From Planctomycetota bacterium (GTDB taxonomy: Bacteria > Planctomycetota > Phycisphaerae > WQYP01): a stretch of DNA of 64,000 nucleotides. The notes under the pieces are model-generated. The model had not been told where the DNA came from and did not search any database. It worked only from the letters and a program-made list of their open reading frames with translations. The position numbers and the translations under genes are program-made. Below are positions 5,443 to 28,823 of the stretch, piece after piece. How positions within the stretch are numbered: the first letter of the stretch is position 1; each line of letters opens with the position of its first letter. The stretch covers positions 39,440 to 103,439 of the forward strand of contig JAKBMM010000002.1 of assembly GCA_021831565.1 (NCBI GenBank). The letters are read 5' to 3'.

Positions 5443-5692
5443 GAGGACCCATCATGTCGGCAATTGTCGTTTATGACCAGCCCGGCCCCGCGCCTGCTTC
5501 GAAAGATTATTCCGCTTCTTCGTGACGACGGCCCCATCTATCACCTCCCAGCGAGGAAGCCAGGGACATTTTCAGAACGATTTTCAAACACGGTAAAACG
5601 AAAGTTGCCAGGCCGAGGCCGGGGTCGGCGGGCGGGGGCGGGTTGGTGGCTAAATGATGCCACCCCTCGCCGGTCAGTTGACCGCGGTCCGG

Positions 5693-5974
5693 CTATTTGT
5701 GTCCCACAGGTCCACCGGCGGTAAGGTATTTCCGCTCCACCGCCTGCGCCAAGTCAATATCGTGGATATTCGCCAGCGTGCAGAGCCAGGCCAGAACATC
5801 GGCGAATTCCTCCTCCTGGTTTTTCCGATTTTTGCCCTGCAGCGCCGTGGCCAGCTCGCCGACTTCCTCCACAAACCACATGAACGTGGCGGCGGTTCCG
5901 CGCTCGCAATCGCGTTGCGAATATTTGTTCCGGATATGCCCCTGGAATCCGGCGATACTCAGAGAATCCACCAT
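5693..5974 (-). CDS. MazG-like nucleotide pyrophosphohydrolase (small single-domain)
   Basis: MVDSLSIAGFQ...FVEEVGELATAL...EEEFADVLAWLCTLANIHDIDL matches the MazG EExxE / ADVL helix motifs. Start taken at internal ATG 5974 of ORF 5693..6061. Confidence 0.65.
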   Translation of the reverse strand: MVDSLSIAGFQGHIRNKYSQRDCERGTAATFMWFVEEVGELATALQGKNRKNQEEEFADVLAWLCTLANIHDIDLAQAVERKYLTAGGPVGHK

Positions 5975-6057
5975 GAGAACCCTTTCATTTCCGCGCCTTG
6001 ATTCACCGGCGCTGCGGGCTGGGAGCAACGAACGCCGCCGCTCGCGCCGCCGCGCCT

Positions 6058-6798
6058 TCACCCCTCGCGGGCACGGAGGATGACTTGTTTCATCCGGGCC
6101 ACCGCTTCGCGCAAGCCGATGAATACAGCCTGGCTGACAATGGCGTGGCCGATATGCAACTCGCCAACGTGCGGCAGCGCCGCGATTGCCCCGACATTGC
6201 GTTCATCCAGCCCGTGGCCGGCGTTGAATTGCATGCCGGAGTTCAAAATATATTCACCCGCGGCGCGCACTTTTTCCAGTTGAACCCGCCGGGCGGCCGG
6301 GGTGGCGGCATTGGCGTAAGGGCCGGTGTGGACTTCACAGATCTCCAGGCCCGCCTTTTTCGCGGCGGCGACCTGGCGCGGCTGGGCATCAATGAAAGCG
6401 CTAACCAGAATGCCGGCGTCGCGCAGGCGGTGAACCACGCGGCGAACGGCCTGGAACCGCCCTGCCACATCCAAGCCGCCTTCGGTGGTAACTTCGGTCC
6501 TCTTTTCCGGCACCAGGGTGGCCATGGCCGGCCGCAGGCGAAGCGCTATGGCGAGCATCTCCTGCACCGCCGCCATCTCCAGGTTCAAGGGAACGCGTAC
6601 GCTTTGAACCAGCAGTTGCACATCCCGGTCCTGAATATGCCGGCGATCTTCGCGCAGGTGAACGGTGATCAGATCGGCCCCGCCGAGCTGCGCTTCCACC
6701 GCGGCCCAGAGAGGGTCCGGTTCCCGGGCGCGCCGGACTTGACGCAGCGTCGCGACGTGGTCGATATTGACGCCGAGTTTCACCATATTTATACCCAT
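6058..6798 (-). CDS. pdxJ: Pyridoxine 5'-phosphate synthase
   Basis: MVKLGVNIDHVATLRQVRR...ITVHLREDRRHIQDRD...NLEMA...EVHTGPYA is the canonical PdxJ sequence. Start at 6798 or 6786. Confidence 0.85.
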   Translation of the reverse strand: MGINMVKLGVNIDHVATLRQVRRAREPDPLWAAVEAQLGGADLITVHLREDRRHIQDRDVQLLVQSVRVPLNLEMAAVQEMLAIALRLRPAMATLVPEKRTEVTTEGGLDVAGRFQAVRRVVHRLRDAGILVSAFIDAQPRQVAAAKKAGLEICEVHTGPYANAATPAARRVQLEKVRAAGEYILNSGMQFNAGHGLDERNVGAIAALPHVGELHIGHAIVSQAVFIGLREAVARMKQVILRAREG

Positions 6799-7505
6799 AA
6801 TTTCGCGGGATTGGTCTGCGTAAGCGTGCAAACCTGCTCGCGGCCAACCAGTTCGATCGCCCGCTCCAATCCGGCCAGCCGCGTGGGCAGATGGTCCGGC
6901 CGATGGCAATCCGAACCGAGCATAAAATAGAGGCCACGGGTCAGGAATTGTTCGGCAAGCGCGCGGATCGGCTCCGGTTCCGACCCGCCCAGCGGCCCCA
7001 GATTTCCCTGGAACAACACCCCCCGGTCCGCCAGAGTCTCAATCAGGGAGGGATTGGCGCGTATGGCATCCATTCGTTCCGGGTGGGCCAGGATTACCGT
7101 CAGACCGCGGCTTTGCAGAGAGTCGATCGCCTCGTCGGCCCAGTGCGGCCAGTCCGGCTCCCATGAATCCGCCAGACAGTACGCCGTGTTCAGGCCATAC
7201 GTGGGTATGCGGTCCATATCGTCCCACCGCAACAGTTGCCGCGAGAGCCGCAGTTCCCCCCCCGGCCGGAATTGCGCCGCCACCCCCCGCTGCTCCATCT
7301 GTCGCTGAAAAACCTCCACCGCTCGCCGCGTCTGCTCCGGCGTAACATCGCCATATTCCGTGCAGCCGGTGTGCGGGGTAAGAAAAAAACGATCGTAGCC
7401 GTGCTGCACCATCGCCCGGACGCACGCGAACGAATCGTCCAAGCCGACGCAGCCGTCGTCCATTCCCGGCAGAAAATGATTATGTACGTCAATCCGGTTC
7501 ATCAT
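6789..7505 (-). CDS. PHP-family tyrosine-protein phosphatase (CpsB/YwqE-like)
   Basis: [18 protein letters not shown]...LAHPER...GSDCH match the CpsB metal-binding motifs. Overlaps pdxJ start and typA stop by a few nt. Confidence 0.7.
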   Translation of the reverse strand: MMNRIDVHNHFLPGMDDGCVGLDDSFACVRAMVQHGYDRFFLTPHTGCTEYGDVTPEQTRRAVEVFQRQMEQRGVAAQFRPGGELRLSRQLLRWDDMDRIPTYGLNTAYCLADSWEPDWPHWADEAIDSLQSRGLTVILAHPERMDAIRANPSLIETLADRGVLFQGNLGPLGGSEPEPIRALAEQFLTRGLYFMLGSDCHRPDHLPTRLAGLERAIELVGREQVCTLTQTNPAKLWV

Positions 7506-15879: not shown

Positions 15880-16194
15880 ATGGACGCGGCACCGGTCCAA
15901 CTGCACAGCCCTAACGAGATTGCCCGCCAACTGGCGCAGCACGTCCGCACCGAACGTCTCCGCCGCCAATGGAAACAGGAGACGCTGGCCAGGCGTTCGG
16001 GCGTGTCGGTGGCAACCATTCGCCGGTACGAACGTACCGGCCACACGTCGCTTGTGAACCTGCTGAAGCTCTGCCACGCGTTGGGCCGGCTGGATGAGTT
16101 CGCCGGCTTGCTCCAACCGCCACCCGCCACGTCGCTGGCCCAACTCGAATCCCGTGCCACCAAGGTCCGGGGGCGCAAACGAGGTGTGCGATGA
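15880..16194 (+). CDS. hipB: HipB-like HTH (XRE-family) antitoxin
   Basis: HTH segment ETLARRSGVSVATIRRYE. Stop overlaps the hipA start (ATGA). Confidence 0.7.
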   Translation: MDAAPVQLHSPNEIARQLAQHVRTERLRRQWKQETLARRSGVSVATIRRYERTGHTSLVNLLKLCHALGRLDEFAGLLQPPPATSLAQLESRATKVRGRKRGVR

Positions 16195-17441
16195 GGCAAC
16201 TGACGGTCAAACTGCAACGCCGGCCAGGCGACGCTCTGACGGTCGGCACGCTGGCAGAGCATGATCGACACACATACTTCGAGTACGACCCCACATTTCT
16301 CAACACCGGCTTTGAGCTCTCGCCCTTCAAGCTGCCCGCCCGGCCCGGCTTGATCGAACATACCGACCGCGCGTTCGGTCCGCTGCCCGGCGTGTTCGAC
16401 GACTCCCTGCCCGACGGTTGGGGTCTGCTATTGATGGATCGTCACTTCCGCCGCCAGGGTGTCGACCCCATGACGTTGTCCCCGCTCGATCGGCTCGCCC
16501 ACCTCGGCGCCCGCACCATGGGCGCTCTGGTCTACCATCCGCCGTCCCGCCAACTGCCCGAGCGCGACGAGCAACTGATCAATCTCTACGATCTTGGCCG
16601 CAATGCCGAGGATGTGCTCGAAGGCGACGCCGCCGAGGTGCTGCCCGAACTGATGCGGGCTGGCGGGTCGCCAGGCGGCGCCCGCCCCAAGGTACTCGTG
16701 GGCGTCCAGGGCGACCGCATCATCTCGGGCGCAGAGGATCTGCCCGAGAGATTCCTTGGTGGCGGGGGCGAGCATTGGATCGTCAAGTTCGCCGCCAAGG
16801 CGGACGCTCCCGCGGCCGGTCCCGTCGAATACGCGTATAGCCTGATGGCCCGGGCCGCCGGGGCGGACATGCCGCCGACTCGCCTATTCGAGGTCAGGCG
16901 CGGCCGCAGTGTCCGGCGGTACTTTGGCGTCAAACGGTTCGACCGCGCCGCTGAAAACCGGCGCGTTCACATGCACACCTTCGCCAACCTGGTGCACGTG
17001 AACTTCCGCATCCCCGCGACCGACTACGCTGATCTGTTGAAGGTGACGCGGGCGCTGACACGCAACCATGCCGACCTGCTGCGCCTGTTTCGGCTGATGC
17101 TGTTCAACATCGCCGCCCACAACCGCGACGATCACGCCAAGAACTTCGCCTTTACGCTCGACGATCAGACCGGCGAATGGTCGCTCGCCCCCGCCTACGA
17201 CCTGACTTACTCGCCCGGCCCCGGTGGCGAGCACACCACCACCATCCTCGGCGAGGGCCGCCAGCCAACACGCGGCCATTGCTTGAAGCTGGCCGATCAG
17301 TTCGGACTCAAACCCGGCGAAACTCGTCCCATCATCGACCAGGTCAACACCGCCATCAGCCACTGGCGCCGGTTCGCCGAGCAGGCGGGCTGCGCGAAGA
17401 AGATGGTTGTCGCGATCGGCAAGGCAATCGCCGCAATCTAA
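16191..17441 (+). CDS. hipA: HipA-family serine/threonine kinase toxin
   Basis: HipA N- and C-terminal domains. GGARPK ATP-binding motif (SPGGARPKVLV) and catalytic HNRDDHAKNFAF loop. Confidence 0.85.
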   Translation: MRQLTVKLQRRPGDALTVGTLAEHDRHTYFEYDPTFLNTGFELSPFKLPARPGLIEHTDRAFGPLPGVFDDSLPDGWGLLLMDRHFRRQGVDPMTLSPLDRLAHLGARTMGALVYHPPSRQLPERDEQLINLYDLGRNAEDVLEGDAAEVLPELMRAGGSPGGARPKVLVGVQGDRIISGAEDLPERFLGGGGEHWIVKFAAKADAPAAGPVEYAYSLMARAAGADMPPTRLFEVRRGRSVRRYFGVKRFDRAAENRRVHMHTFANLVHVNFRIPATDYADLLKVTRALTRNHADLLRLFRLMLFNIAAHNRDDHAKNFAFTLDDQTGEWSLAPAYDLTYSPGPGGEHTTTILGEGRQPTRGHCLKLADQFGLKPGETRPIIDQVNTAISHWRRFAEQAGCAKKMVVAIGKAIAAI

Positions 17442-17528
17442 CCCAGCGTGAGATGGTTCGTCGTACCGTTGTGGTGAATCAACCTCTCCGCGGCTCCGTG
17501 TGAGTTCGTTGTTGTCCTCATCAGCGTT

Positions 17529-17720
17529 TCACATGCCGGCGTTCATAGGTGTCCAGGATACTGTGGTACACGTGGTATCTGGGATTTTAAACGCGTAGGA
17601 ATATCTTTCGACTTGCTTGGACTGTTCGGCAGCGTAAATTGTTCGCGATACAGAGAGGCTGTGGTCGTGCTCGGCTACAGCGGCCAACCCCGTCTCCAAT
17701 TTCTGAAGATCAGCGTCCAT
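17529..17720 (-). CDS. Small hypothetical protein (63 aa) with strong RBS, downstream of the 329-aa islet gene
   Basis: AGGAGA RBS 6 nt upstream of ATG. Low GC like the islet; co-directional with the 329-aa gene, 77 nt after its stop. Confidence 0.45.
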   Translation of the reverse strand: MDADLQKLETGLAAVAEHDHSLSVSRTIYAAEQSKQVERYSYAFKIPDTTCTTVSWTPMNAGM

Positions 17721-17797
17721 CTGATTTCTCCTTCGGTAGCGAAAGTGGTTCGCTCGAATCCGATAACAAATCGATTTTCCGCCTCATTTCTCAGTGC

Positions 17798-18787
17798 CTA
17801 CCACTTCGCCTCACGGAGTTTGGAAGCAATTTCCTTGACGTTCGATGGGTCGATATTGGTTTTGGGGATTACCTCCCGCAGGTCGTGGAAAAGGGGACCC
17901 TGGATTGCATAAGGCGAGTCCTTTCTGTACTCCGTTTGCTCGGGGACTCCACAGAAGAAGCGATGGCCAGTTGAGACCTCCCATCCAAGGTCTTTCTTGG
18001 CCGCGTTTATTATGCCGATTATTTTGCTGTCGTATTCGGTTGTTTCGCGCCCGTCGACCAGCGTCTTGGTGAGGCGATCATTGACATATTCCGCGTCATA
18101 AATTGAGTCAACTGCCCAGATGCACGGCACATTTTTTTGTGCATATATTCCTAGAAATTTGTGTTTTCTATAGCCGCGATCTTGCGCATGGAAATAGACG
18201 CCGAATTGCTGGTTAATTTTTACCGTTTCGCTGCACGGAACGATTCGGAGGAGGAATTTCGATTCATCGAACAGCCCCGTGTCACTGCAATAGTCTATAT
18301 AATCTTCCACTAACGCAAGCATCTGCGGCTCGTGTTCCTTGAACATCGACTTAATTTCGTGGCAAATATCCTCGTAGGTGATGTTGCGAAAAACGAGGCT
18401 GGGAACTTGTTTTGCGATTTTGCCCCCCTCTATGGCGGATAACTGTTGTCGTTGTCGGGTTAGCAGGAGAAGTATTTTCTGGGACTCATTTGAAAAGCTA
18501 GTTGCATGCCGGGAGAGTTGGTCTAGGTTGACACCACTGTTGACCTTCGATTCCACAAGAATCTTGAAGCTCCGTTGGATTATGGCGCCATCAGGCACCG
18601 ATTGTTTGTTGCGCGGCTGCTGGTTGACTTCGATTCCCACAACTATTTCCTCCCCGCAAAGCTTGGTTAGCAGATTCGACAGGTGCTGCGGGGAATAATC
18701 GTATATGCGAGCGAGGAGTTGGAGCGTGTTATTTGTGACAGTATTCTCTTGGCCTGAATATCGCGGAAAATAATGGATTTTAGACAC
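17798..18787 (-). CDS. Hypothetical protein (329 aa) in a low-GC islet, with an N-terminal PD-(D/E)xK-like motif (VPDGAII...ILVESKV)
   Basis: Long ATG-initiated ORF with codon usage clearly different from its surroundings. No family recognised beyond the nuclease-like PD...ESK spacing. Confidence 0.6.
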   Translation of the reverse strand: MSKIHYFPRYSGQENTVTNNTLQLLARIYDYSPQHLSNLLTKLCGEEIVVGIEVNQQPRNKQSVPDGAIIQRSFKILVESKVNSGVNLDQLSRHATSFSNESQKILLLLTRQRQQLSAIEGGKIAKQVPSLVFRNITYEDICHEIKSMFKEHEPQMLALVEDYIDYCSDTGLFDESKFLLRIVPCSETVKINQQFGVYFHAQDRGYRKHKFLGIYAQKNVPCIWAVDSIYDAEYVNDRLTKTLVDGRETTEYDSKIIGIINAAKKDLGWEVSTGHRFFCGVPEQTEYRKDSPYAIQGPLFHDLREVIPKTNIDPSNVKEIASKLREAKW

Positions 18788-19280
18788 GTGTGGCTCCTTT
18801 CGCGCTCCCCGTTAAGACGATGTGACTGGGTGCATTGCGGGGACGGCATGCACCTTCACGGGTTATTCTGATGATGGCACCATCATATTTCACTTGCCCC
18901 AAATGCGACTCTAACTGGGATCCCTATTGCCCGCAAGCTTTATGCGCTAATGTTCTGTTAAACCGGCTCCCATCATTTCCGCCAGCGCCTGCGGCGTGGC
19001 GACTTTTTCTCGTCCATCAGCAGCGTGTTTTTATCTGTTGGAGTGTACCCGGTACGGTGAAACCGGAATTTGACCCAACCGCATATAAAACAAGCACTTA
19101 CGGTTTTTTATGCGTAGAACTTCGGATTAAGTTAACGCTTATGGTGAGGACGCCCCGCACTCCCAGGGGCGTCCGAAAAATTACCGCGCCCGTCGCACCG
19201 CGGCGAACCCCGGATAGGCAAGCGGGCTTCGCCCCCCGCGCTTTGGCAAACGCATGGATATAACGTCATTGGCGCCGCAA

Positions 19281-19368
19281 CGGAGAGAGTGGGATTCGAA
19301 CCCACGGTGGGGTCATCCCCCACACACGACTTCCAATCGTGCTCCTTAAGCCGCTCGGACATCTCTCC
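19281..19368 (-). tRNA. tRNA-Ser (anticodon GGA)
   Basis: Minus-strand sequence GGAGAGATGTCCGAGCGG...GTGGGTTCGAATCCCACTCTCTCCG. Perfect 7-bp acceptor stem, T-arm GTGGG-TTCGAAT-CCCAC, long variable arm, anticodon loop TTGGAAG. No encoded CCA. Confidence 0.9.
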
Positions 19369-19398
19369 AGAATCCCGGCGATCCGGGATACCTGTAAA

Positions 19399-20262
19399 CT
19401 ACCGTTCGTCCGAAGGTACGTCAATTTTCTCCCGATTTACCCCGGCGGCGGGCGACCGGGAAGGATCGGGATTCCGCCGGCCGTCGATCCGGCCGATCAG
19501 CCGCAACAGACCGTCGAGGATGGTCAGGGGATGCGGCGGGCAGCCGGGAACGAAAAGATCAACGGGCACAATGGAATCGGCGCCATGGTGGACCTGGGGA
19601 TGATCGCGGTACGGTCCGCCGGAAATGGCGCACGCGCCGATGGCGATGACTATTTTCGGTCCGGGCACGGCATCATAGGTTTGTACAAGGGCGGATTTCA
19701 TGTTCCGGGTAACCGGGCCGGTGATCAACAGACCGTCGGCATGGCGGGGCGAGGCGACAAAATCAATTCCGAAACGTCCCAGATCCCAGCCAATGGTGGT
19801 AAGCACATTGACATCGGCCTCGCAGGCATTGCAGCCGCCGGCCGAGACCACGCGCAATTTCAGCGAGCGGCCCAGGAGTTTGCGGAGTTTATCGTCCAGG
19901 GCCGCGGCGAGCGCCGGCTCGCCGTCGGGGCCTACCAGCAAGTCCGCGCGCCGCCGAACCGCCAGGCGATAATCACGCGAATATTGAATCGCGCCCGTCG
20001 GGCAGGCTTCGGCGCAATCGACGCAGAACAGGCAGCGGCCCAGATCCAGTTCGATGCGGCCGGCGGCGATGGTGATGGCCCGCGTGGGACAGGCCTGGGC
20101 GCACAGGTCGCATGAATCGGGGCACCGGGCGGCATCGAATACGGGCCGGGCACGGAAATGCGGCGCCAGCGCCGGCGGAGCGCCGTCGGGATAGGCCATG
20201 GTCTGATGGCCCTGTTGGAATCGGGCTTTGACAATATCGAACATAAAACGTTCCTTCACCAA
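19399..20262 (-). CDS. Fused 2x[4Fe-4S] ferredoxin (NuoI/HycF-like) + NuoB/HycG-like small subunit of a complex-I / group-4-hydrogenase-like module
   Basis: N-terminal CPDSCDLCAQACP and CLFCVDCAEACP. NuoB-like part has GGCNACE (hydrogenase-type CxxC), IGACAISGGPY and PGCPP proximal-cluster ligands. Confidence 0.8.
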   Translation of the reverse strand: MVKERFMFDIVKARFQQGHQTMAYPDGAPPALAPHFRARPVFDAARCPDSCDLCAQACPTRAITIAAGRIELDLGRCLFCVDCAEACPTGAIQYSRDYRLAVRRRADLLVGPDGEPALAAALDDKLRKLLGRSLKLRVVSAGGCNACEADVNVLTTIGWDLGRFGIDFVASPRHADGLLITGPVTRNMKSALVQTYDAVPGPKIVIAIGACAISGGPYRDHPQVHHGADSIVPVDLFVPGCPPHPLTILDGLLRLIGRIDGRRNPDPSRSPAAGVNREKIDVPSDER

Positions 20263-20268
20263 TCCGAA

Positions 20269-21786
20269 TTATAGATCGTGACCGCAGTAAGAAAGACTAA
20301 AACTCTTATTGCAGAGCGGGAAATCGGAAATTTGCCCGCCGCGCATCGCCAGGGCCAGCCCCATCCAGTTATGGAACGACGGATCAACCACTTTATAACG
20401 CTCGAAGCGGCCGGCGGCGTCGGTCAACGCCAGATGGCATATTTCGCCGCGCCACCCTTCCACCAATGCTACGGCCAGATGATCGGGCGCCAAATTTCCC
20501 ACCGGGGAGCTTATGGTTCCGGGCGGGAGGGATCGAAGCTGTGTCCGGACAAAGTCCAGGGATCGCTGAATTTCCAACCAGCGGACATAAGCGCGGGCGA
20601 AGACATCGCCGCCGTCCCAGGAAGAAACGGGGATATGTATAAACCGGAATAAGCCGGAGGGATGGTCCTGCCGGGCGTCGCGGGTAAGTCCGCAGGCGCG
20701 GGCCACCGGTCCGACCATGCCCAGTTCAACGACCGCGCGGCGCGTCACCGGGCCGATGCCCTCGAAGCGGGCCATCACCGAGGACGAATTCCAGAGCAAT
20801 TCGACGGCCTGGCGGGTCTGCCGGCCGCAAATATCCAGTTTCGCCAGCAGATCGTTCACGGTACAAGTGGCCGGATCAAAACGCACGCCACCCGGTCGAA
20901 TCAGTCCGCGTCCGAACCGGCTGCCGCAAAGAGCGGCCGTCATGTTCAGGAATTCACCGCGCAGGCGTCCGCAATAAGAGGCGGTGGGAAGAAAGCCCAC
21001 GTCGCCGCTGAGCGCCCCCAGGTCTCCCACGTGATTGGCCAACCTTTCCAGTTCCAGGGCGATGCCGCGAATGCTCTGCGCCCGCGGCGACTTCTGTTTG
21101 CGGGCCAACGCTTCGAGCACCTGGCAGTAAGCGGTGGCGTGTCCGATGGTGGTGTCGCCGGCGAGCGTTTCGGCGTAATGGATGGTGCGATGATTCGGAC
21201 CGCCGAGCAGTGCTTGCTCCACTCCTCGATGCTGGTATCCCAGCGCCATCTCCAGGTGAAACACAACTTCTCCGTGGCACTGGAAGCGGAAATGTCCCGG
21301 CTCAATGACGCCCGCGTGGACCGGTCCCACGGCCACCTCGTGCACTTCCTCCCCCCGCACCTGGTAGAAATCCATCACTCCCGGCGGCGCGACGCGATCG
21401 TTCCCGGGCCGGCCCGATGGAAACAATGGCGGATGAAAACGGAGCGGTTTGAGCCAGGGATGTCCGACGATATCCAAACCACACTGTTCGGCGATTTCCC
21501 GTTCAAAGAGATGTACCTGCGGACACCGGGGCGTTAAAGAAGGGTAGTGCCGGCCCGCCAGCGTGGAAGCGACCCGGAGAATGGATTGGGTATCGTCCGC
21601 CAGAACCACATACAGGCGCAGGCGATCCGGTGCTTCGAGCGAACCAAACAGGCTTGCCACCCGCCGGCCCGTGCGTACCGCATCCAGAATGACTTGCTGG
21701 AAGTTGTCCAGGGCCAGGTCGGGAATCAAACGACGGCTGATGGCGCGTCCGGCGCCGAGCAGGGGTAAAGAGTCGGCCTGATTCAT
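20269..21786 (-). CDS. Fused NuoC-like + NuoD/[NiFe]-large-subunit-like protein lacking all Ni-Fe-ligating cysteines (Ehr-type)
   Basis: NuoC motif FEREIAEQCGLDIVGHP; NuoD-like GPVHAGVIEPGHFRF...HRGVEQ. No CxxC anywhere; the C-terminus has DPSFHNW where hydrogenases have DPCxxC. Confidence 0.8.
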   Translation of the reverse strand: MNQADSLPLLGAGRAISRRLIPDLALDNFQQVILDAVRTGRRVASLFGSLEAPDRLRLYVVLADDTQSILRVASTLAGRHYPSLTPRCPQVHLFEREIAEQCGLDIVGHPWLKPLRFHPPLFPSGRPGNDRVAPPGVMDFYQVRGEEVHEVAVGPVHAGVIEPGHFRFQCHGEVVFHLEMALGYQHRGVEQALLGGPNHRTIHYAETLAGDTTIGHATAYCQVLEALARKQKSPRAQSIRGIALELERLANHVGDLGALSGDVGFLPTASYCGRLRGEFLNMTAALCGSRFGRGLIRPGGVRFDPATCTVNDLLAKLDICGRQTRQAVELLWNSSSVMARFEGIGPVTRRAVVELGMVGPVARACGLTRDARQDHPSGLFRFIHIPVSSWDGGDVFARAYVRWLEIQRSLDFVRTQLRSLPPGTISSPVGNLAPDHLAVALVEGWRGEICHLALTDAAGRFERYKVVDPSFHNWMGLALAMRGGQISDFPLCNKSFSLSYCGHDL

Positions 21787-23216
21787 GGCTTGGCTCCCAG
21801 ATATCGGCTGGCCTGGTGCAAAAGGTCCCGCAGCGGCGGCGGCAGATACAGCCCCAGCAACAATACCATCAGCAGAGCACCCAGCGCCGGCAGACCACTC
21901 AGCAGGCCATCGCGGTAATTGTTCCGCGCGGCGGCTACGGGCGCCCGGCCCAGCACGGCGGCGAGCACGGTTCGCCCCATTCCCAGGAAAATCACCAGCA
22001 GCAGAAACAGAAACGCCGCGCCGATCAGGAAATGCCCGGCGGCAAAGGCGCCGTTAAGAATCATGAACTCACTGATAAACGGGCCGAACGGAGGCGATCC
22101 GGTGATGGCCAGAAAACCCAGCATAAACACCGTGCCCGAGAGAGGCAGCCGTCGCATGGCGCCGTGCACCTGCGGTATGGTTTTGCCGCCGTAGGCCCGG
22201 TCGATGTTGCCGACGGAAAGAAACAGCGATCCCTTGGTCAGGCCGTTGTTGATCACGTGCAGCATGGCGCCCAGCAGAGCGATACCGCCGATTCCCAGTC
22301 CCAGCGCAAGAATTCCCATGTGTTCCACACTGGAATAGGCGAGCATCCGCTTGAGGTCCTTCTGGCCGATCATAAATATCGCCGCGAAAAGCATGGATAA
22401 AAGCCCCAGAAATATCAGGAGCCTGGAGGCATAAGCGCCATCGCCGGCGGCATACAGGATGTGCTCGGATCGCACCACCATAAGAAAAGCGCTGCTGATG
22501 AGCGCTCCGGAAAACATGGCCGAAACCGGAGCCGGGCTTTCGCCATGGGCGTCCGGCAGCCAGGAGTGCATCGGGGCCAGGCCCATTTTGGTTCCATAGC
22601 CGACCAGCAGCAGGACAAATCCGGCCTGAAGCCAGACCTTGTTGAGCCGGGGCGCCTGGCGAAGCAGGTCGATGATTTTCAGGGAAGGCGTCATTCCCCG
22701 GCTCACGGCGGAGTAAGCCACGAAAAATGATCCGAGCAAGGCCAGAGCGATGCCCACGGAGCAGATCAGGAGATATTTCCAGGTGGCTTCGATGGACTGC
22801 GGCGTGCGGTTGAAATATATCAAAGGCGCGGAGCTAAGGGTGGTGGCTTCCATGGCCACCCACATCAGGCCGAGGTTGTCCGTGCAGATGACCAGGGTCA
22901 TGGCGCCCAGAAACAGCAGGAAGCACGAGCAGAAGACGCGATTGGCATGATCGGCGCGGGAGCACAGGTATCCCGCCAAATAAAAAGAACACAGCAGGAA
23001 CAACACGCTCACCAGAAGCAGCACCACGCGCCCGGGCGGATCGATCTCCAGCCAGCCCCCGCGCGCGCCGCCGCCATATCCGGCCAGAATGGCCAGGACC
23101 AGGCCCAGGTGGGCGATCGCCACGGGCGGCAGGAGCCAGGGCCGCCGGCGGTTGGAGGGCAGCAGCGCCGCCAGGGCGGCGGCGAGAGGACATAGAATAA
23201 TAAGTGCAATGTACAT
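21783..23216 (-). CDS. NuoN/NuoM/MrpD-like antiporter-type membrane subunit (HyfF-like)
   Basis: 477 aa, 14 TM. Conserved WLPDAHGESPAPVSA and LAYSSVEHMG motifs. Start overlaps the previous gene by 4 nt. Confidence 0.8.
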   Translation of the reverse strand: MYIALIILCPLAAALAALLPSNRRRPWLLPPVAIAHLGLVLAILAGYGGGARGGWLEIDPPGRVVLLLVSVLFLLCSFYLAGYLCSRADHANRVFCSCFLLFLGAMTLVICTDNLGLMWVAMEATTLSSAPLIYFNRTPQSIEATWKYLLICSVGIALALLGSFFVAYSAVSRGMTPSLKIIDLLRQAPRLNKVWLQAGFVLLLVGYGTKMGLAPMHSWLPDAHGESPAPVSAMFSGALISSAFLMVVRSEHILYAAGDGAYASRLLIFLGLLSMLFAAIFMIGQKDLKRMLAYSSVEHMGILALGLGIGGIALLGAMLHVINNGLTKGSLFLSVGNIDRAYGGKTIPQVHGAMRRLPLSGTVFMLGFLAITGSPPFGPFISEFMILNGAFAAGHFLIGAAFLFLLLVIFLGMGRTVLAAVLGRAPVAAARNNYRDGLLSGLPALGALLMVLLLGLYLPPPLRDLLHQASRYLGAKP

Positions 23217-23223
23217 ACGTTAA

Positions 23224-23865
23224 TTATCCCTTCAAGGAAGAAAGCCGCCGGGTGTCCAGCGAAGCGAACTCGCGATTGATGTGATGCATGATGATGCTGA
23301 TGACAAAAATGCCGACAAACAGGTCCAGCAGTACGCCCAGCTCCACCAGGGACGGGATCGCGCCGAGCAGAAGCAGACCGAAAACGAAAATGCCGTTTTC
23401 CAGCAGCAGAAAACCGATGGTTTGCGTAAGGGCCTTCACCCGCGTGGTCAAAAGCAGAAAGCCGGTGAAAAGCATGGAGATGGAAGTGGGAATCACCAAC
23501 AGACCCAGAGGGCTTGCGGAAGGCGTGATCCGTCCGGCCAGCACCAGGGCGGCGCCGGTGGCGGCGGCGCCCAGAAGAATGCAGGGCATGAATCCGATGA
23601 TCGGTTCCACCTCCCGTTTGACGTGGGCGTCGCGCAGGGCCTTGAGCAGCATATTGGGAATCACGACGCCTTTGAGCACAACCGTCATCAAGGCCATGAA
23701 CAGCGGTACGAATTGCGCCTCCCGGAGCACCAGGGGAGGCAGCAATCCCAGCAAGATGCCCTGGAGCGCCGCGGCGTGTATCAAAGCCTTCATGCGGCCG
23801 GCGCCCAGGACAAACAGGTTGATCAGAATCACCAGTACAAAAATGGCGTTGAGGGTCATCATCAT
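23224..23865 (-). CDS. HyfE-like small membrane subunit of the complex
   Basis: 213 aa, about 6 TM; size and hydropathy are those of hydrogenase-4 component E. 7-nt gap to the neighbouring genes. Confidence 0.6.
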   Translation of the reverse strand: MMMTLNAIFVLVILINLFVLGAGRMKALIHAAALQGILLGLLPPLVLREAQFVPLFMALMTVVLKGVVIPNMLLKALRDAHVKREVEPIIGFMPCILLGAAATGAALVLAGRITPSASPLGLLVIPTSISMLFTGFLLLTTRVKALTQTIGFLLLENGIFVFGLLLLGAIPSLVELGVLLDLFVGIFVISIIMHHINREFASLDTRRLSSLKG

Positions 23866-23871
23866 GGTCGG

Positions 23872-24810
23872 TCACCGCAGCAGCAAAAGAAATCCAAAAC
23901 CGTTCAAAAGACAGGCGGCAACCAGAAGCGTCGGCACCAGTCGAAGCTGCAGCCGGGCCATGATGGATTCCACCACGCCAATCACACCCGCCACCGCCAG
24001 CAGGCCGGGTATGGTCATCGCCCAGTTTTCCCAGATCCATCCCTGATTCAGCGGGAGCAGCACATGGAGCAGCAGGGCGCCGAGGACCAGAAGTTTGACG
24101 GCTGATCCGTAAATCTGCGCCGCCAGCAGGGGGCCGCTGTTGTCCAGCACCAGCACCTCATGTATCATTGTCAATTCGAGATGTGTATTTGGATCATCAA
24201 TGGGCAGACGGGAGGTCTCCGCCAGGAGCACCACGAACAATCCGAACGCCGTGAGCACCAGCGCCGCCGCGGCCGTGGAATCAATAGCGACATGTGTCGC
24301 GGGCGCCAGCATGGTGCTCAGGCTCAAGGTTCCGGAGAGTTTCACCAGCACCAGCAGCGCCAGAAACAACGCCGGTTCCGAAAAGGAGGCGAAGGTGAGT
24401 TCCCGGGCGGCCCCCATCCCCTCAAACGATGAGCCGGTATCCAGCGCCGCCAGAATGGTGAAAAATCTCCCCAGCGCCAGCAGGTAAGCAAACAGGATCA
24501 GATCGCCGGTGAAATGCACGGGAGCCGCGGTCGGTCCCAGCGGAACAAGCAACCCCGCCAGCAAGACGCTGGCCAGGGAAATCAGCGGCGCGGCCGAAAA
24601 CACCCAGGTTGTGGTGGAACTCAGCACGACGCCTTTGCGCATGAGCCGAAGCAGATCGTAGTAAGTCTGGAAAAGCGGCGGGCCGACGCGCCCGGCGAAC
24701 CAGGCCTTGGTTTTGTTGATAACGCCCGGCAGCAATGGCGGCAGAAGCACCAGCAGCAGGATCTGAAAAGCAATCGAAATAAGCGTATTCATAAAGTCAA
24801 TAGCTCGCAA
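23872..24810 (-). CDS. NuoH/HycD/HyfC-like membrane subunit
   Basis: 312 aa with 8 TM. Conserved IDDPNTHLELTMIHEVLVLDNSGP-type loop (the E/D-rich quinone-channel loop region). Confidence 0.75.
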   Translation of the reverse strand: MRAIDFMNTLISIAFQILLLVLLPPLLPGVINKTKAWFAGRVGPPLFQTYYDLLRLMRKGVVLSSTTTWVFSAAPLISLASVLLAGLLVPLGPTAAPVHFTGDLILFAYLLALGRFFTILAALDTGSSFEGMGAARELTFASFSEPALFLALLVLVKLSGTLSLSTMLAPATHVAIDSTAAAALVLTAFGLFVVLLAETSRLPIDDPNTHLELTMIHEVLVLDNSGPLLAAQIYGSAVKLLVLGALLLHVLLPLNQGWIWENWAMTIPGLLAVAGVIGVVESIMARLQLRLVPTLLVAACLLNGFGFLLLLR

Positions 24811-24828
24811 ATATCGTGCGACCGCCCC

Positions 24829-26796
24829 TCAAACCAGCAACAGCACCAGAACAATCAGCAAGACGTAAAGCAGATACAACTGCACCGTACCGCTCTGAAA
24901 AATCCTGGCGGATTTAAGGGTATTCCCGGCCTTGTGCAACGCCGGTTGCACAACGCTCTCCAGCAGCGGGTCCGGGGTATGAGAGGCATAGTTCGATGGT
25001 TGGGGAAAAACGCCCTGAATCCGCGGTTGTCGCCGGGTGGACCACACAAGCCAGCGCAGCATTTCTGTGAGCGCTTGCGTGAGCGATGAGCCGGTGTACT
25101 GCATGCGCTGGTTGGGAGAGACGTAACCACAACCCCATGTCCGGCCGGGGTTACGGATCCGGGCGTGCCGCCAGGGTATGGCCAGCACCCCGATCAGTCC
25201 GCCCGCGAAGAACAGGGCCAGGGCCACAGCGGTAAAACAGCCCAGGGGAATAATGGTTTCCAGGGGGATGGGCGCGTTCCAAGGCGTCCAGGCTCGAATC
25301 GCATGATCCAGAAGTCCTGTGAACAACTGCGGAAAAATGCCGACGATCGCACAGCCGGCGGCCAGCAGCAGCATGGGCGCCAGCATCATGGACCCCGGCT
25401 CATGGGCGTTGGCGGCCGCCGCGGTTCGCGGTTGGCCGGCGAATGATGTCGCCGTGAACTTGATAAACGTCGTCATGGCCAAAGCCCCGACCATGGCCAA
25501 CAGGGGAACGGCCAGTGCGGCCCAGCCGGCGGGTGTTCCCCCCTGGAGCGTTTTGAATAATCCCAGGTAAATGAACAGTTCGCTGACAAAGCCATTCCAT
25601 GGCGGCAGAGCCGAGATGGAGGCCGCTCCAACCAGCATCAGCCAGAAAAGCGTCGGCATTCGTCGGGCCAGGCCGCCCAAAGCCTCCAGATCGCGGGCGC
25701 CCGTGCCGTGTATGATTCCGCCGGCGCCCATGAACAGGAGCGGTTTGAACAGGCTATGATTGAACATGTGAAGCAGCGATCCCCCCAGTCCCAGCGCCAC
25801 CCAAAGCGGGTGTTGCAGGGATAGTCCCAACACGGCCAGCCCCAGACCCGTCATGAGAATGCCGATATTTTCAATGCTGCTGTAGGCCAGAAGCCGCTTG
25901 CAGTCCCTCTGCGCACAGGCCCATACAATTCCCAGGAAAGCCGAGAGCATTCCACAACTGAGCAGCACCGCTCCCCACCAGATCGGTGGATGACCCGCGA
26001 TGGCGGCCACCCGCACGATGCCGTAAACGCCCATGTTCAGCAGCACACCGGAAAACAGCGCCGATACGTGGCTAGGGGCATTGGCGTGCGCCCCCGGCAG
26101 CCAGACATGCAGCGGGACCAGACCGGCCTTGCAGCCAAATCCCACCAGCCCCAGAATAAACAGAGCCGCCAGCATCGCTCTCGGCAGGTGCGTCAGGCCG
26201 GTCGGCCAGAGATTTAGCGAACCGGACCCGACTCGGAGCAATACGAAAAAGGCGATCAGACAGAGTGTGGCAATATGGGTGGCGATGAGGTAGACCCATC
26301 CCGCCTGTTGCACTTGCGGCCGACGGTCCTCGGTTATCAGAAGAAAGTAGCCCGCCATCGCCATGATTTCCCAGGCGATGAGGAATTCCACGCTGTTGGC
26401 GGCGAGAACCACCAGGATCATTCCGGCGGTCGTGATTCCCCAGAATAAACGGAGTTTGCGTCCATCCGCGGGATGCCGCCGCTGCGGCCAATAGCCCAGG
26501 CCATAGACGGACCCCAGGGCGGAAATCAGAAAAATGGGAAGTAAAAACCAGGCGCTTAAGTCATCCAGTTGCAAGGCGGGCTTGCCGATCGGAAAGCGGT
26601 ATGTCGTGGCCCAATGCAACGGAGCGGCCGCCGCTAGATCATGGCGCAACAGTACCGCGATGCCGAGGGCGCTGGCCAGCACATGGATGGCCATCGATAG
26701 TACCGGCCCGCGCGCGCTGCGCCGGCCGGACACCAGCGAAGGCAAGCCGCTTCCAGCGATCAATAGAGCGGCGAGAATCAGAAGAAACATGGTCAT
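24829..26796 (-). CDS. NuoL/MrpA/HyfB-like antiporter-type subunit, paralog 1
   Basis: Start taken at MTMFLLI (ATG 26796; GGAG RBS 9 nt upstream). Conserved HVWLPGAHANAPSHVSALFSG and KRLLAYSSIENIG motifs. Confidence 0.8.
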   Translation of the reverse strand: MTMFLLILAALLIAGSGLPSLVSGRRSARGPVLSMAIHVLASALGIAVLLRHDLAAAAPLHWATTYRFPIGKPALQLDDLSAWFLLPIFLISALGSVYGLGYWPQRRHPADGRKLRLFWGITTAGMILVVLAANSVEFLIAWEIMAMAGYFLLITEDRRPQVQQAGWVYLIATHIATLCLIAFFVLLRVGSGSLNLWPTGLTHLPRAMLAALFILGLVGFGCKAGLVPLHVWLPGAHANAPSHVSALFSGVLLNMGVYGIVRVAAIAGHPPIWWGAVLLSCGMLSAFLGIVWACAQRDCKRLLAYSSIENIGILMTGLGLAVLGLSLQHPLWVALGLGGSLLHMFNHSLFKPLLFMGAGGIIHGTGARDLEALGGLARRMPTLFWLMLVGAASISALPPWNGFVSELFIYLGLFKTLQGGTPAGWAALAVPLLAMVGALAMTTFIKFTATSFAGQPRTAAAANAHEPGSMMLAPMLLLAAGCAIVGIFPQLFTGLLDHAIRAWTPWNAPIPLETIIPLGCFTAVALALFFAGGLIGVLAIPWRHARIRNPGRTWGCGYVSPNQRMQYTGSSLTQALTEMLRWLVWSTRRQPRIQGVFPQPSNYASHTPDPLLESVVQPALHKAGNTLKSARIFQSGTVQLYLLYVLLIVLVLLLV

Positions 26797-26840
26797 CAAC
26801 AACGACTCCAGACGACTCCATCCCGGCACGCCGGGATCGG

Positions 26841-28823
26841 TTAAAACAGGATCTTCCAGAGCGCTCCCAACGGGAGCGTAATCAGAAGCAGAAAAAGTAA
26901 CATCAAAAGCATATAAAAAAGATAGCTCTGAACGTTGCCCCGCTGGAACACGCGGCCATTGGCCAGCACGGATCGCAAACGCCGCCACCCGGGTTCCAGA
27001 ACGTTTTTCAGGACCGGATCATCCACATGCGAATGGAATTGACCGGGACCGGCAAAGAGGCCCGATAGCCGCGGTTCGCGACGGCGCATGCGCAGCAGCG
27101 GCCGCAATGTACCCAGCAGCATTTGTGCCAGGGAGGAGGCGGTGTACTGCATACGGCTGGAAGACCCGGCGTAACCGCAATTCCACGTCGGTTGGGTCCG
27201 CGCCTGGCGCGCCAGGAACCGCCGGAGAAGGAAAGCGACCAGGAGGACCGCGGCCAGAGACAGATTCATTATGGTCAAGGCGGTTAGCGGAGTCAGCGCA
27301 ACCAGCGCCGGCAGTCCCCGGTGGGCCCAGGCGCTGGTGGTTCGGTTCAACGGCGTTGCCACCAGCGTGGGCGCCATTCCGATCAACAGACATCCGCCGG
27401 CGAGAATCATCATCGGCAGCCAAAACGCCGGGCCGGCTTCGCGCACCCGGCGCAGCTTGGTGCGGGCTGTTCCAAGAAAGACCGCGCCGCAGACCTTGGT
27501 GAAGCACGCCGCCGCCAGCGCCCCGACCATGGCCAGCACTCCGGCAGCCAGAGCCAGTATCGGCAGCACGGTCATTGTTCGCAGAAGCCCCACGTAAATG
27601 AAAAGTTCACTGACAAATCCATTCAGCGGCGGCAGGCCGCAGATGGCGATGGCTCCGAGCAAAAACAGGTTGGAAGTAAGCGGCATGGATTGGGCCAGCC
27701 CGCCGAGCCGATCGATTTTCCGCGTTCCGGCGGCATGGATGACACTGCCCGCGGAAAGGAACAAAAGCGACTTGAACAATCCGTGATTCCAGACGTGCAG
27801 AAGACATCCGGCCATTCCCAGGATGATCCATATCGGCTGATGTTTTGCCTCGCCGATCAGCGCCAGTCCCAGTCCCAACAGGATGATTCCGATGTTTTCC
27901 ACACTGTGATACGCCAGGAGTTTTTTCAGATCGTGCTGACCGATCGCCCATAACACACCGAGAAATGCGCTAAGTGCGCCGAGCGTCATAACCAGAATGC
28001 CCCAGCCGAGCGGTCTGGCCGGAAGCAGCGGCAACACGCGCAGCAGCCCGAAAATGCCCATCTTAATTGTGGTTCCCGATAACGTTGCGGATACATGACT
28101 CGGAGCGTTCGCGTGGGCTTCGGGCAGCCAGAAATGCAGCGGCACCATGCCGGCCTTAACGCCGAAGGCCCCCAGGGCCAGTAGAAATAACGCCGTCTGC
28201 AATCCCATACCGGCCTGTTCCGGCGAAAGCGGACGCAGAAGAAATGATCCCGACGCCATACGCAGCAAGGCAAAAAAGGCGAACAGCAGCAAGGTGCTTA
28301 TGTGTGCCGCCGCCAGATAAACCCAGGCGGCCTGGCGGGAGTCGGGCTTGAAGTCTTCCGTGGCTATAAGGAAAAACGTGCTGATCGCCATGAGTTCCCA
28401 CGCAAACAGAAAGCAAATGCCGTTGTTGCTCAACGTAATCATCGCCATGCTGGAAATGAGTATTCCGTACCAGAATCGCAGTTTCCGGCCGGTCCGGGGA
28501 TGATGACTTTGTTTCCAGTAACCGATGCCATAGAGCGAACATAGGCCGCCGATAAGAAAAATGGGGACCAGAAAAAATGCCGCCAGCGGATCAAGCCGGA
28601 GGTTGGTGGTCATGACCGGCGCCGGTCCGGGACCGGCCAGAGATTCAACCGGGGCGCCAAGCAGTATGGCCATAGCGGCCGTGAGGCCGCACAGCGCGGC
28701 CAGGACGGCCACCAACACCGAAAGCCAATGTCCCCAATTGCGGCGGCGATTGCCCACCATACCTATCAGGCCGCTGGCGGCAAAGCCGCCCGCGCCCAGC
28801 AATGTCATGGTCAGCCACATCAC
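26841..28823 (-). CDS. NuoL/MrpA/HyfB-like antiporter-type subunit, paralog 2
   Basis: 660 aa. HFWLPEAHANAPSHVSATLSG and KKLLAYHSVENIG. First gene of the structural part of the operon. Confidence 0.8.
   Translation of the reverse strand: MMWLTMTLLGAGGFAASGLIGMVGNRRRNWGHWLSVLVAVLAALCGLTAAMAILLGAPVESLAGPGPAPVMTTNLRLDPLAAFFLVPIFLIGGLCSLYGIGYWKQSHHPRTGRKLRFWYGILISSMAMITLSNNGICFLFAWELMAISTFFLIATEDFKPDSRQAAWVYLAAAHISTLLLFAFFALLRMASGSFLLRPLSPEQAGMGLQTALFLLALGAFGVKAGMVPLHFWLPEAHANAPSHVSATLSGTTIKMGIFGLLRVLPLLPARPLGWGILVMTLGALSAFLGVLWAIGQHDLKKLLAYHSVENIGIILLGLGLALIGEAKHQPIWIILGMAGCLLHVWNHGLFKSLLFLSAGSVIHAAGTRKIDRLGGLAQSMPLTSNLFLLGAIAICGLPPLNGFVSELFIYVGLLRTMTVLPILALAAGVLAMVGALAAACFTKVCGAVFLGTARTKLRRVREAGPAFWLPMMILAGGCLLIGMAPTLVATPLNRTTSAWAHRGLPALVALTPLTALTIMNLSLAAVLLVAFLLRRFLARQARTQPTWNCGYAGSSSRMQYTASSLAQMLLGTLRPLLRMRRREPRLSGLFAGPGQFHSHVDDPVLKNVLEPGWRRLRSVLANGRVFQRGNVQSYLFYMLLMLLFLLLITLPLGALWKILF

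Follow-up and report, generated by a model that had tools for sequence, protein, structure and literature searches.

The question raised by positions 17,529 to 18,787 of a 64,000 nucleotide (nt) stretch of DNA from a Planctomycetota bacterium (GCA_021831565.1, contig JAKBMM010000002.1; the whole stretch is referred to as the window) is whether two adjacent open reading frames (ORFs), encoding proteins of 329 and 63 amino acids (aa), act as a pair or whether the larger gene stands alone. The original prediction, made from the letters of this DNA, had interpreted them as a defence or addiction cassette consisting of a nuclease-like protein and a small partner. Both ORFs, the 77 nt between them, the AGGAGA ribosome binding site (RBS) and the stretch of low GC content were found as described. 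Comparison with related loci identifies the 63-aa ORF as the stump of a deleted neighbouring gene and the 329-aa gene as an ordinary, intact member of a large family. Our best, though tentative, reading of its product is a restriction-type nuclease of Type IV (modification-dependent) that consists of a single chain. The features of the large gene are the following:

17798..18787, minus strand: gene for the 329-aa protein, a predicted stand-alone two-domain nuclease of an unannotated family (GTG start, TAG stop; AGGAG 8 nt upstream)
18272..18787, minus strand: N-terminal domain, aa 1-172, predicted PD-(D/E)xK nuclease and distant PDDEXK_4 relative (AlphaFold (AF2) model, conservation, profile comparison)
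18746..18748, minus strand: codon of E14, which lies in the first helix and is the predicted fourth catalytic acid (kept in 128/132 representatives; the role is putative)
18545..18595, minus strand: codons P65-K81 (PDGAIIQRSFKILVESK) with the predicted catalytic residues D66, E79 and K81, conserved in 132 representatives
17801..18271, minus strand: C-terminal domain, aa 173-329, beta-rich and PUA-like (ASCH/YTH/EVE-like), a putative reader of nucleic acid or of a modified base (domain model, weak fold matches)

The PD-(D/E)xK-like residues are not a chance motif. In 132 diverse representatives of the family, which are 25-46% identical to the 329-aa protein, D66 and K81 are each kept in 131 sequences and E79 in 130, and conservation is similarly high for E14 (128), Q71 (128), Q90 (127) and H94 (126). 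The predicted catalytic residues are invariant in 36 closer homologues. The motif had been given as VPDGAII and ILVESKV separated by eight residues; both strings are present, but the protein reads VPDGAII-QRSFK-ILVESKV, with five residues between them and 13 positions from D66 to E79. Conservation is also high in an N-terminal block comprising F7, R9, E14, N15, T18 and N20. No such conservation is seen at E53 in the first strand, and helix 1 probably supplies the fourth acid.

The AF2 model of the whole protein, calculated from 36 homologues, has a mean pLDDT of 85. It predicts two helices (13-44), followed by strands 51-56, 67-72 and 74-81, a helix (88-96) and a further strand (103-110). D66 is placed just ahead of strand 2 and E79-x-K81 on strand 3, as in the canonical alpha-beta-beta-beta-alpha-beta core, so that a nuclease-type fold is present in the predicted model. 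Foldseek comparison of the full-length model with the PDB gave no significant match; the weak ones include VcaM4I, TTHA0113, EcoT38I, MUS81-EME1 and MOC1 resolvases. PDB sequence searches with two family profiles returned nothing relevant.

Profile comparison relates the N-terminal domain to PDDEXK_4 (PF14281). Among the 132 members 17 match PF14281 at E<=0.1 (best 9.6e-5), one matches Mrr_cat and one PDDEXK_13, and no other family recurs. Using hhalign we obtained an E value of 0.0056 against the PDDEXK_4 protein of locus L001 as a single sequence (L-numbers designate loci that hold relatives of the 329-aa gene), and of 0.0013, with a probability of 18%, against a profile of 75 PDDEXK_4 sequences from metagenomic loci. 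The blocks PD, ExK, QL..H/Y and LLxLT are in register in these alignments. The 329-aa protein itself stays below the Pfam gathering threshold for PF14281 and gave no PF14281 match. Conservation, profiles and model together identify a real PD-(D/E)xK nuclease domain, which is a distant relative of PDDEXK_4, not a member by the Pfam threshold. Proteins of PF14281 and of PDC-S26, a single-gene defence candidate in PADLOC, share with this domain the core PD...ExK...QL..H/Y...LLxLT. The 329-aa protein differs from them in falling under all PF14281 and PDC-S26 thresholds and in its C-terminal domain, which PDDEXK_4 proteins lack. PDDEXK_4 is listed with the function 'Unknown' (PMC3424549).

A Cys4 zinc site was considered as a feature of the family and rejected: C142, C167, C185 and C279 are invariant in the 36 closer homologues, and C167 alone is broadly conserved. 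In the wider family C167 is present in 116/132 and C185 in 72/132 members, and a metal or disulfide site confined to one lineage may exist.

The C-terminal domain was also modelled alone (pLDDT 89.5, pTM 0.84); it is mostly beta, with three helices. The top 50 Foldseek matches of this model in the PDB are mostly chains of the PUA superfamily, none of them significant (best E 0.04). They include an ASCH protein from Zymomonas (ZmASCH; E 0.04-0.08, probability up to 0.82, TM 0.41-0.43 over 114-139 columns), TTHA0113, numerous chains of YTHDF2 and YTHDC1, VcaM4I (an EVE-HNH enzyme), an ASC-1 homologue from Enterococcus and ASC1. The chain of CMoRE (9u75_A), which is specific for 5-hydroxymethylcytosine (5hmC), takes rank 27 (E 0.38, TM 0.32). 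N192, Y198, G213, Y215, K218, F277, K289 (132/132) and W329 are conserved across the family, a set of residues that would fit a pocket for a nucleotide or base. Since neither a significant fold match nor a match to a PUA-family Pfam model was obtained, the assignment of the domain as a PUA-like sensor is tentative. Nothing significant was found by Foldseek in the viral structure library BFVD. The second-best, non-significant match of the C-terminal fold there, over 154 columns, is A0A8S5N646 (Myoviridae sp. ct8ME27, 320 aa, annotated as PD-(D/E)XK superfamily), which might share the whole architecture.

A word-indexed search found 421 homologues of the 329-aa protein, and an exhaustive search 1058 cluster representatives (50% identity) at E<=1e-3, with 372 of these below 1e-30. 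The members come from many phyla, nearly all have 327-345 aa and match end to end, and they align from the same first residue as the ORF of the window (M-S-K-I-H-Y-F). Every source names them 'hypothetical'. The 329-aa protein matched nothing in Pfam, NCBIfam or PHROG, and its sole match in PADLOC was weak (PDC-S26, E 1.1e-3 over aa 73-167); the earlier statement that it belongs to no recognisable family thus holds for the curated families. In the literature on PDC-S26, PDDEXK_4 or ASCH-nuclease defence systems we found no description of this family. Scanning one genome per species (185,579 species genomes) revealed 38 loci, an undercount caused by the two-pattern seed of the scan, in Planctomycetota, Nitrospirota, Gallionella, Latescibacterota, Desulfomonile, Verrucomicrobiota, Gemmatimonas, Photobacterium, Kistimonas, Salinicoccus and others. 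The distribution across phyla is very patchy.

The origin of the small ORF became apparent from the closest homologue of the large one. The relevant features are:

17529..17720, minus strand: 63-aa ORF (ATG start, AGGAGA 6 nt upstream; gap to the 329-aa gene exactly 77 nt)
17721..17797, minus strand: 77-nt intergenic spacer with the AGGAGA RBS (17727-17732), inherited with the deleted neighbour (same length and 71% identity in L001)
17656..17720, minus strand: 65-nt remnant (about 22 codons) of the 5' end of a deleted PDDEXK_4 / PADLOC PDC-S26 gene (blastn and tblastn against L001)
17529..17655, minus strand: remaining part of the 63-aa ORF, where reading continues into unrelated sequence; not a conserved coding region (no matches)

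The closest homologue of the 329-aa protein, with 87% aa identity, is encoded in a Planctomycetota metagenome-assembled genome (L001, L002, L006). In L001 the family gene is followed by the same 77-nt spacer and then by a 374-aa gene that belongs to Pfam PDDEXK_4 (PF14281). The product of this gene begins MDADLWGLEMGLPAVAEYDHGL, the 63-aa ORF of the window begins MDADLQKLETGLAAVAEHDHSL. The blastn homology between window positions 17656-18786 and L001 positions 5760-6890 starts at the start codon of the large gene, crosses the spacer and ends at 17656, and tblastn with the 374-aa protein matched residues 1-23 alone in the window. For residues 23-63 of the small ORF there was no protein or DNA match in 43 related loci or elsewhere in the window, and the ORF as a whole had no family match below E 0.007 in Pfam, PADLOC, NCBIfam or PHROG. 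The intact 374-aa gene of L001 matches PDC-S26 with E 3.9e-60 over aa 42-314; the window retains codons 1-22, which lie outside this region, and holds no full-length PDC-S26 match. The rate of nonsynonymous substitution (dN) between the window and L001 is about 2.7 times higher in the stump than in the 329-aa gene.

As the homology to L001 breaks off after the first 65 nt of the second gene and the tail is unmatched, these alignments identify the 63-aa ORF as a deleted neighbour's RBS and initial 22 codons, continued through unrelated sequence to a stop codon. It is therefore not the partner gene it had been taken for, although it was called as a gene by the gene caller in the source assembly. 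This calls for caution in annotation: an ORF of this kind, short and equipped with a perfect RBS downstream of a defence gene, need not be a partner and may instead be what is left of a deleted neighbour. The 329-aa gene itself is under strong purifying selection, as judged from a ratio of nonsynonymous to synonymous substitution (dN/dS) of 0.088 between the window and the 87%-identical relative in L001, with similar values in both halves. The gene has been maintained despite the loss of its neighbour.

A census of the neighbourhoods agrees with a solitary gene. It covered two genes on each side at 30 distinct loci, i.e., 120 ORFs, searched with Pfam and PADLOC. The commonest families were PIN (3), WYL/WCX (2) and ResIII (2), and no Pfam or PADLOC family occurred in more than 3 loci. 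After all-against-all clustering of the flanking ORFs no family was present in more than 4 loci (WYL regulator 4, PIN 2-3, a 344-aa protein 2). The family gene is solitary in 29/30 loci, and no homologue of the 63-aa ORF lies downstream of it in the other related loci. A DNA methylase (N6_N4) was found once among the 120 ORFs, i.e., at 1/30 loci, and none was seen near the gene in the window. The family thus has neither a conserved partner nor a conserved methyltransferase at these loci, and co-occurrence of the pair in other genomes, which had been suggested as a check, was not borne out, as homologues occur without the small ORF.

The PDDEXK_4 gene was rejected as a true conserved partner, since among 33 distinct loci it accompanies the family in the closest lineage only (L001, L002, L006). 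At 80 metagenomic loci encoding PDC-S26 relatives no gene of the 329-aa family was located within 3 kb. The adjacency in L001 is that of two independent genes side by side.

A different protein, encoded in the same direction as the family gene and 116-127 nt upstream of it, was noted in two unrelated genomes, Nitrospirae (344 aa; L003 4851-5885, plus strand) and Photobacterium (335 aa; L025 4867-5874, plus strand). The two proteins are 50% identical, have no Pfam or PADLOC match and carry a C-terminal D...ExK-like motif (LIDVVIKE...FYEIKT); they could represent a stand-alone nuclease or an occasional partner. An hhalign comparison of the 344-aa protein with the 329-aa family revealed no relation.

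The defence context that had been postulated from the window is seen in part. Relatives often occur among PIN, HEPN-MNT, WYL, HsdR, SEFIR/TIR, AbiEi and BrxB genes, but many loci are plain housekeeping. The L001 island also holds VapBC, PIN and RelE-like Gp49/HTH modules, MNT-HepT (HEPN-MNT) lies downstream of the family gene in the Nitrospirae genome of L003, and a SEFIR/TIR protein and HsdR are found near it in Salinicoccus (L033). Matches to PADLOC among the neighbours comprise REase_I, GajB, AbiEi, bSEFIR, BrxB and several PDC candidates.

Some individual neighbourhoods are of interest in themselves. HTH-WYL-WCX regulators of the BrxR/CapW type are encoded 105 nt upstream of the family gene and on the same strand in two Latescibacterota (L010 and L011, 4919-5896), and an HTH-WYL-WCX regulator 677 nt upstream in Desulfomonile (L037, 4293-5321). 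In L009 an integron-integrase-like tyrosine recombinase (Phage_int_SAM_4 and Phage_integrase; 4879-5856, minus strand) is encoded divergently from the family gene, 145 nt upstream of it, and this copy of the family gene may be an integron cassette. In two Gallionella-like genomes (L007 3072-6831, L008 4672-8433) the gene lies between hom (homoserine dehydrogenase) and thrC, with gaps of 4-18 nt; the 476-aa gene at these loci was assigned as threonine synthase by eye from its sequence. These copies appear to be solitary insertions into a housekeeping operon.

Type IV restriction is suggested by the combination of a nuclease with a putative reader, the lack of a methyltransferase, the patchy distribution across phyla and the frequent location among defence or toxin-antitoxin genes. 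The locus holds one functional unit and not two, the gene for the 329-aa protein. If the Type IV reading, which we hold with somewhat less than even confidence, is correct, the C-terminal domain of this two-domain enzyme would recognise a modified base of the incoming DNA, which would probably be flipped into a pocket formed by Y198, Y215, K218, F277 and K289, and the N-terminal PD-(D/E)xK domain, with E14, D66, E79 and K81 as predicted metal-binding and catalytic residues, would then cut near the recognised base. Host DNA would not carry the mark, and therefore no protective methyltransferase would be needed.

Single-chain enzymes of comparable architecture are known. PvuRts1I consists of an N-terminal PD-(D/E)xK domain followed by a C-terminal SRA domain (PMC4027163). 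Like the 329-aa protein, in which the reader is putative, PvuRts1I and AbaSI, which are Type IV enzymes dependent on 5hmC or its glucosylated form (ghmC), have about 300-330 aa, a nuclease followed by a reader of the PUA superfamily, and act as stand-alone proteins without a methyltransferase (PMC4027163). They share with it the domain order alone, its nuclease being PDDEXK_4-like and its putative reader resembling ASCH, YTH or EVE and not SRA; no homology to PvuRts1I or AbaSI was seen in the PDB profile searches or in the Foldseek top 50 lists. CMoRE (PD-T4-3), a single-gene defence system, has a GIY-YIG nuclease at the N-terminus, a flexible linker and a C-terminal modification sensor (PMC12923530). 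It resembles the 329-aa protein, with its putative sensor, in the order of the two domains, in being encoded by one gene and by the weak C-terminal fold match, and differs in the type of nuclease, which is PD-(D/E)xK in the window.

A third group is formed by PUA-nuclease fusions such as VcaM4I, TspA15I and YenY4I (Lutz et al. 2019), which usually have no methyltransferase nearby (PMC6765204, PMC7897488); the reasoning followed here for Type IV restriction was applied to such fusions by Lutz et al. (PMC6765204). VcaM4I is an EVE-HNH protein (PMC7897488). These enzymes join a PUA-superfamily reader to a nuclease, as is proposed for the 329-aa protein, and VcaM4I is among the weak fold matches. 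However, their reader is N-terminal and their HNH or PD-(D/E)xK domain C-terminal, the reverse of the order in the 329-aa protein, and the 329-aa protein has no EVE, ASCH or YTH Pfam match.

The family is best described as a new, unannotated one within the known single-chain nuclease-plus-reader restriction enzymes, with more than 1000 clusters at 50% identity, mostly from environmental bacteria. It is conceivable, with a little less confidence than for the Type IV assignment itself, that it represents a new, widespread single-chain Type IV family in which a nuclease of PDDEXK_4 type is joined to a PUA-like reader that is highly divergent and possibly of new base-modification specificity. If the Type IV assignment holds, a function that can be tested, namely that of a modification-dependent nuclease acting alone, would be assigned to a large unannotated family. 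PDDEXK_4 and PDC-S26 also gain a structural relative with clearer architecture. Modification-dependent enzymes such as MspJI, AbaSI, PvuRts1I and CMoRE have been useful for mapping 5-methylcytosine (5mC) and 5hmC, so that a reader with new specificity would be of practical value, and the family could provide a reagent for mapping modified bases as well as a new defence family. The cassette is a deletion artefact, but it would be reasonable to characterise the large gene by experiment.

Several observations weigh against Type IV restriction. The assignment is drawn from sequence, models and genomic context, through which DNA as target, dependence on modification and a role in defence are all inferred. 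Fold comparison of both models with solved structures reached E values of 0.03-0.04 at best and TM scores of <=0.43, and PUA-clan Pfam models were absent from the families listed for the 132 members (E<=0.1) and for the 329-aa protein (E<=1). RNA is likewise bound by ASCH and YTH domains, and the target may therefore be RNA. No PADLOC system model covers the family, the best match being that to PDC-S26. A search of 2.9 million viral contigs yielded no relative. The identity across phyla (50-57%) is above what is usual for restriction enzymes, many neighbourhoods are plain housekeeping (hom-thrC in Gallionella, or beside a PQQ dehydrogenase), and the defence and toxin-antitoxin neighbours are observed occurrences and not a background-normalised enrichment.

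The same two-domain protein could also be an abortive-infection or RNA-targeting effector. Binding of a modified nucleotide, or of (modified) RNA arising from infection, to the PUA-like domain would in this case activate a PD-(D/E)xK nuclease without specificity, and the cell would be killed or arrested. The best fold matches, ASCH and YTH, are RNA or nucleotide binders, and toxin-antitoxin neighbours are frequent. Other work describes a PUA-Cal-HAD defence module triggered by N6-methyl-dAMP (m6-dAMP; bioRxiv 10.64898/2026.01.15.699771) and CoCoNuT Type IV-like systems that are predicted to target RNA (PMC11090510). We nevertheless regard such an effector as unlikely: a nuclease with a reader and without a methyltransferase is the classic architecture of DNA-directed modification-dependent restriction (PMC6765204, PMC4027163, PMC12923530), and the fold matches are too weak to choose among PUA subfamilies.

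Marginally less likely still is a function outside immunity, in which the nuclease would belong to the housekeeping genes or to a mobile element and serve, for example, in repair, recombination or structure-specific cleavage, with the C-terminal domain as a plain DNA-binding module. The strong purifying selection together with the unusually high cross-phylum identity would fit such a role, as would the many metabolic neighbourhoods, including the conserved hom-thrC position in the two Gallionella-like genomes, the weak Foldseek matches to MUS81-EME1 and MOC1 resolvases and the absence of a PADLOC system model. Against such a role, the distribution is very patchy, with 38 loci among the 185,579 species genomes, which is an undercount; the copy in the window is located in a low-GC islet at a transfer RNA (tRNA) gene (described below), and the neighbours vary between genomes, with many defence or toxin-antitoxin genes and no link to repair operons seen.

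An orphan conventional Type II-like restriction endonuclease, with its protective methyltransferase encoded elsewhere in the genome, is improbable. PD-(D/E)xK is the commonest Type II fold, EcoT38I is among the weak fold matches and one of the 30 loci has the adjacent N6_N4 methylase, but the other 29 have no methyltransferase nearby. Unlinked restriction and methylase genes are moreover rare and unstable on transfer, whereas the gene of the 329-aa family moves between phyla alone. Least probable by far is the two-gene toxin-antitoxin or defence cassette with a small protein that neutralises or regulates the nuclease: the two ORFs are co-stranded and closely spaced, the second has a strong RBS and was called as a gene, and hipBA is adjacent, but only its first 22 codons have a counterpart, which is the start of the 374-aa PDC-S26 gene, the elevated dN of the stump differs from that of the 329-aa gene, and no partner recurs among the 30 loci or joins the two families at the 80 PDC-S26 loci.

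The surroundings of the locus in the window comprise the following features:

15880..16194 (hipB) and 16191..17441 (hipA), plus strand: hipB-hipA toxin-antitoxin pair (Pfam HTH_3 E 2.5e-9; HipA_C E 1.5e-50; Couple_hipA E 1.2e-16)
17442..19279, no strand: low-GC islet from the hipA stop to the 3' end of tRNA-Ser (GC 0.44-0.55 versus about 0.63 in the flanks)
19280..19369, minus strand: tRNA-Ser(GGA), likely insertion landmark (ARAGORN; Rfam tRNA 51.5 bits)

For a gene of the presumed Type IV enzyme, these features suggest an arrival by horizontal transfer beside tRNA-Ser, together with the PDC-S26 (PDDEXK_4) neighbour. This neighbour was later deleted, leaving its RBS and first 65 nt, which now read into unrelated sequence as the 63-aa ORF. 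The drop in GC content, to 0.44-0.53, spans about 17450-19250, and the 3' end of tRNA-Ser(GGA) faces the islet. No integrase is present in the islet, and neither an att-type direct repeat of the tRNA-Ser 3' end nor inverted repeats bounding the islet were convincing. A search of the islet for RNA genes, promoters and terminators gave the tRNA alone, one weak promoter-like site and no terminator. Positions 17442-17655 (214 nt, from the hipA stop to the deletion breakpoint) have no match in related loci or elsewhere in the window.

The neighbouring hipBA pair was recognised correctly in the original prediction. It has the typical HipBA layout, with an HTH antitoxin followed by a HipA kinase carrying Couple_hipA and HipA_C and a gene overlap of 4 nt. 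Its GC content of 0.63-0.70 is host-like, and by composition the pair lies outside the low-GC islet. An identical 329-aa protein in identical context was present on 24/24 contigs read, including GCA_027343245.1. Directly past the tRNA, at 19399-26988 on the minus strand, follows a long same-strand cluster that resembles a membrane-bound hydrogenase or Mrp-like complex; its first three genes match the Pfam families Oxidored_q6 (with 4Fe-4S), Complex1_49kDa and Proton_antipo_M.

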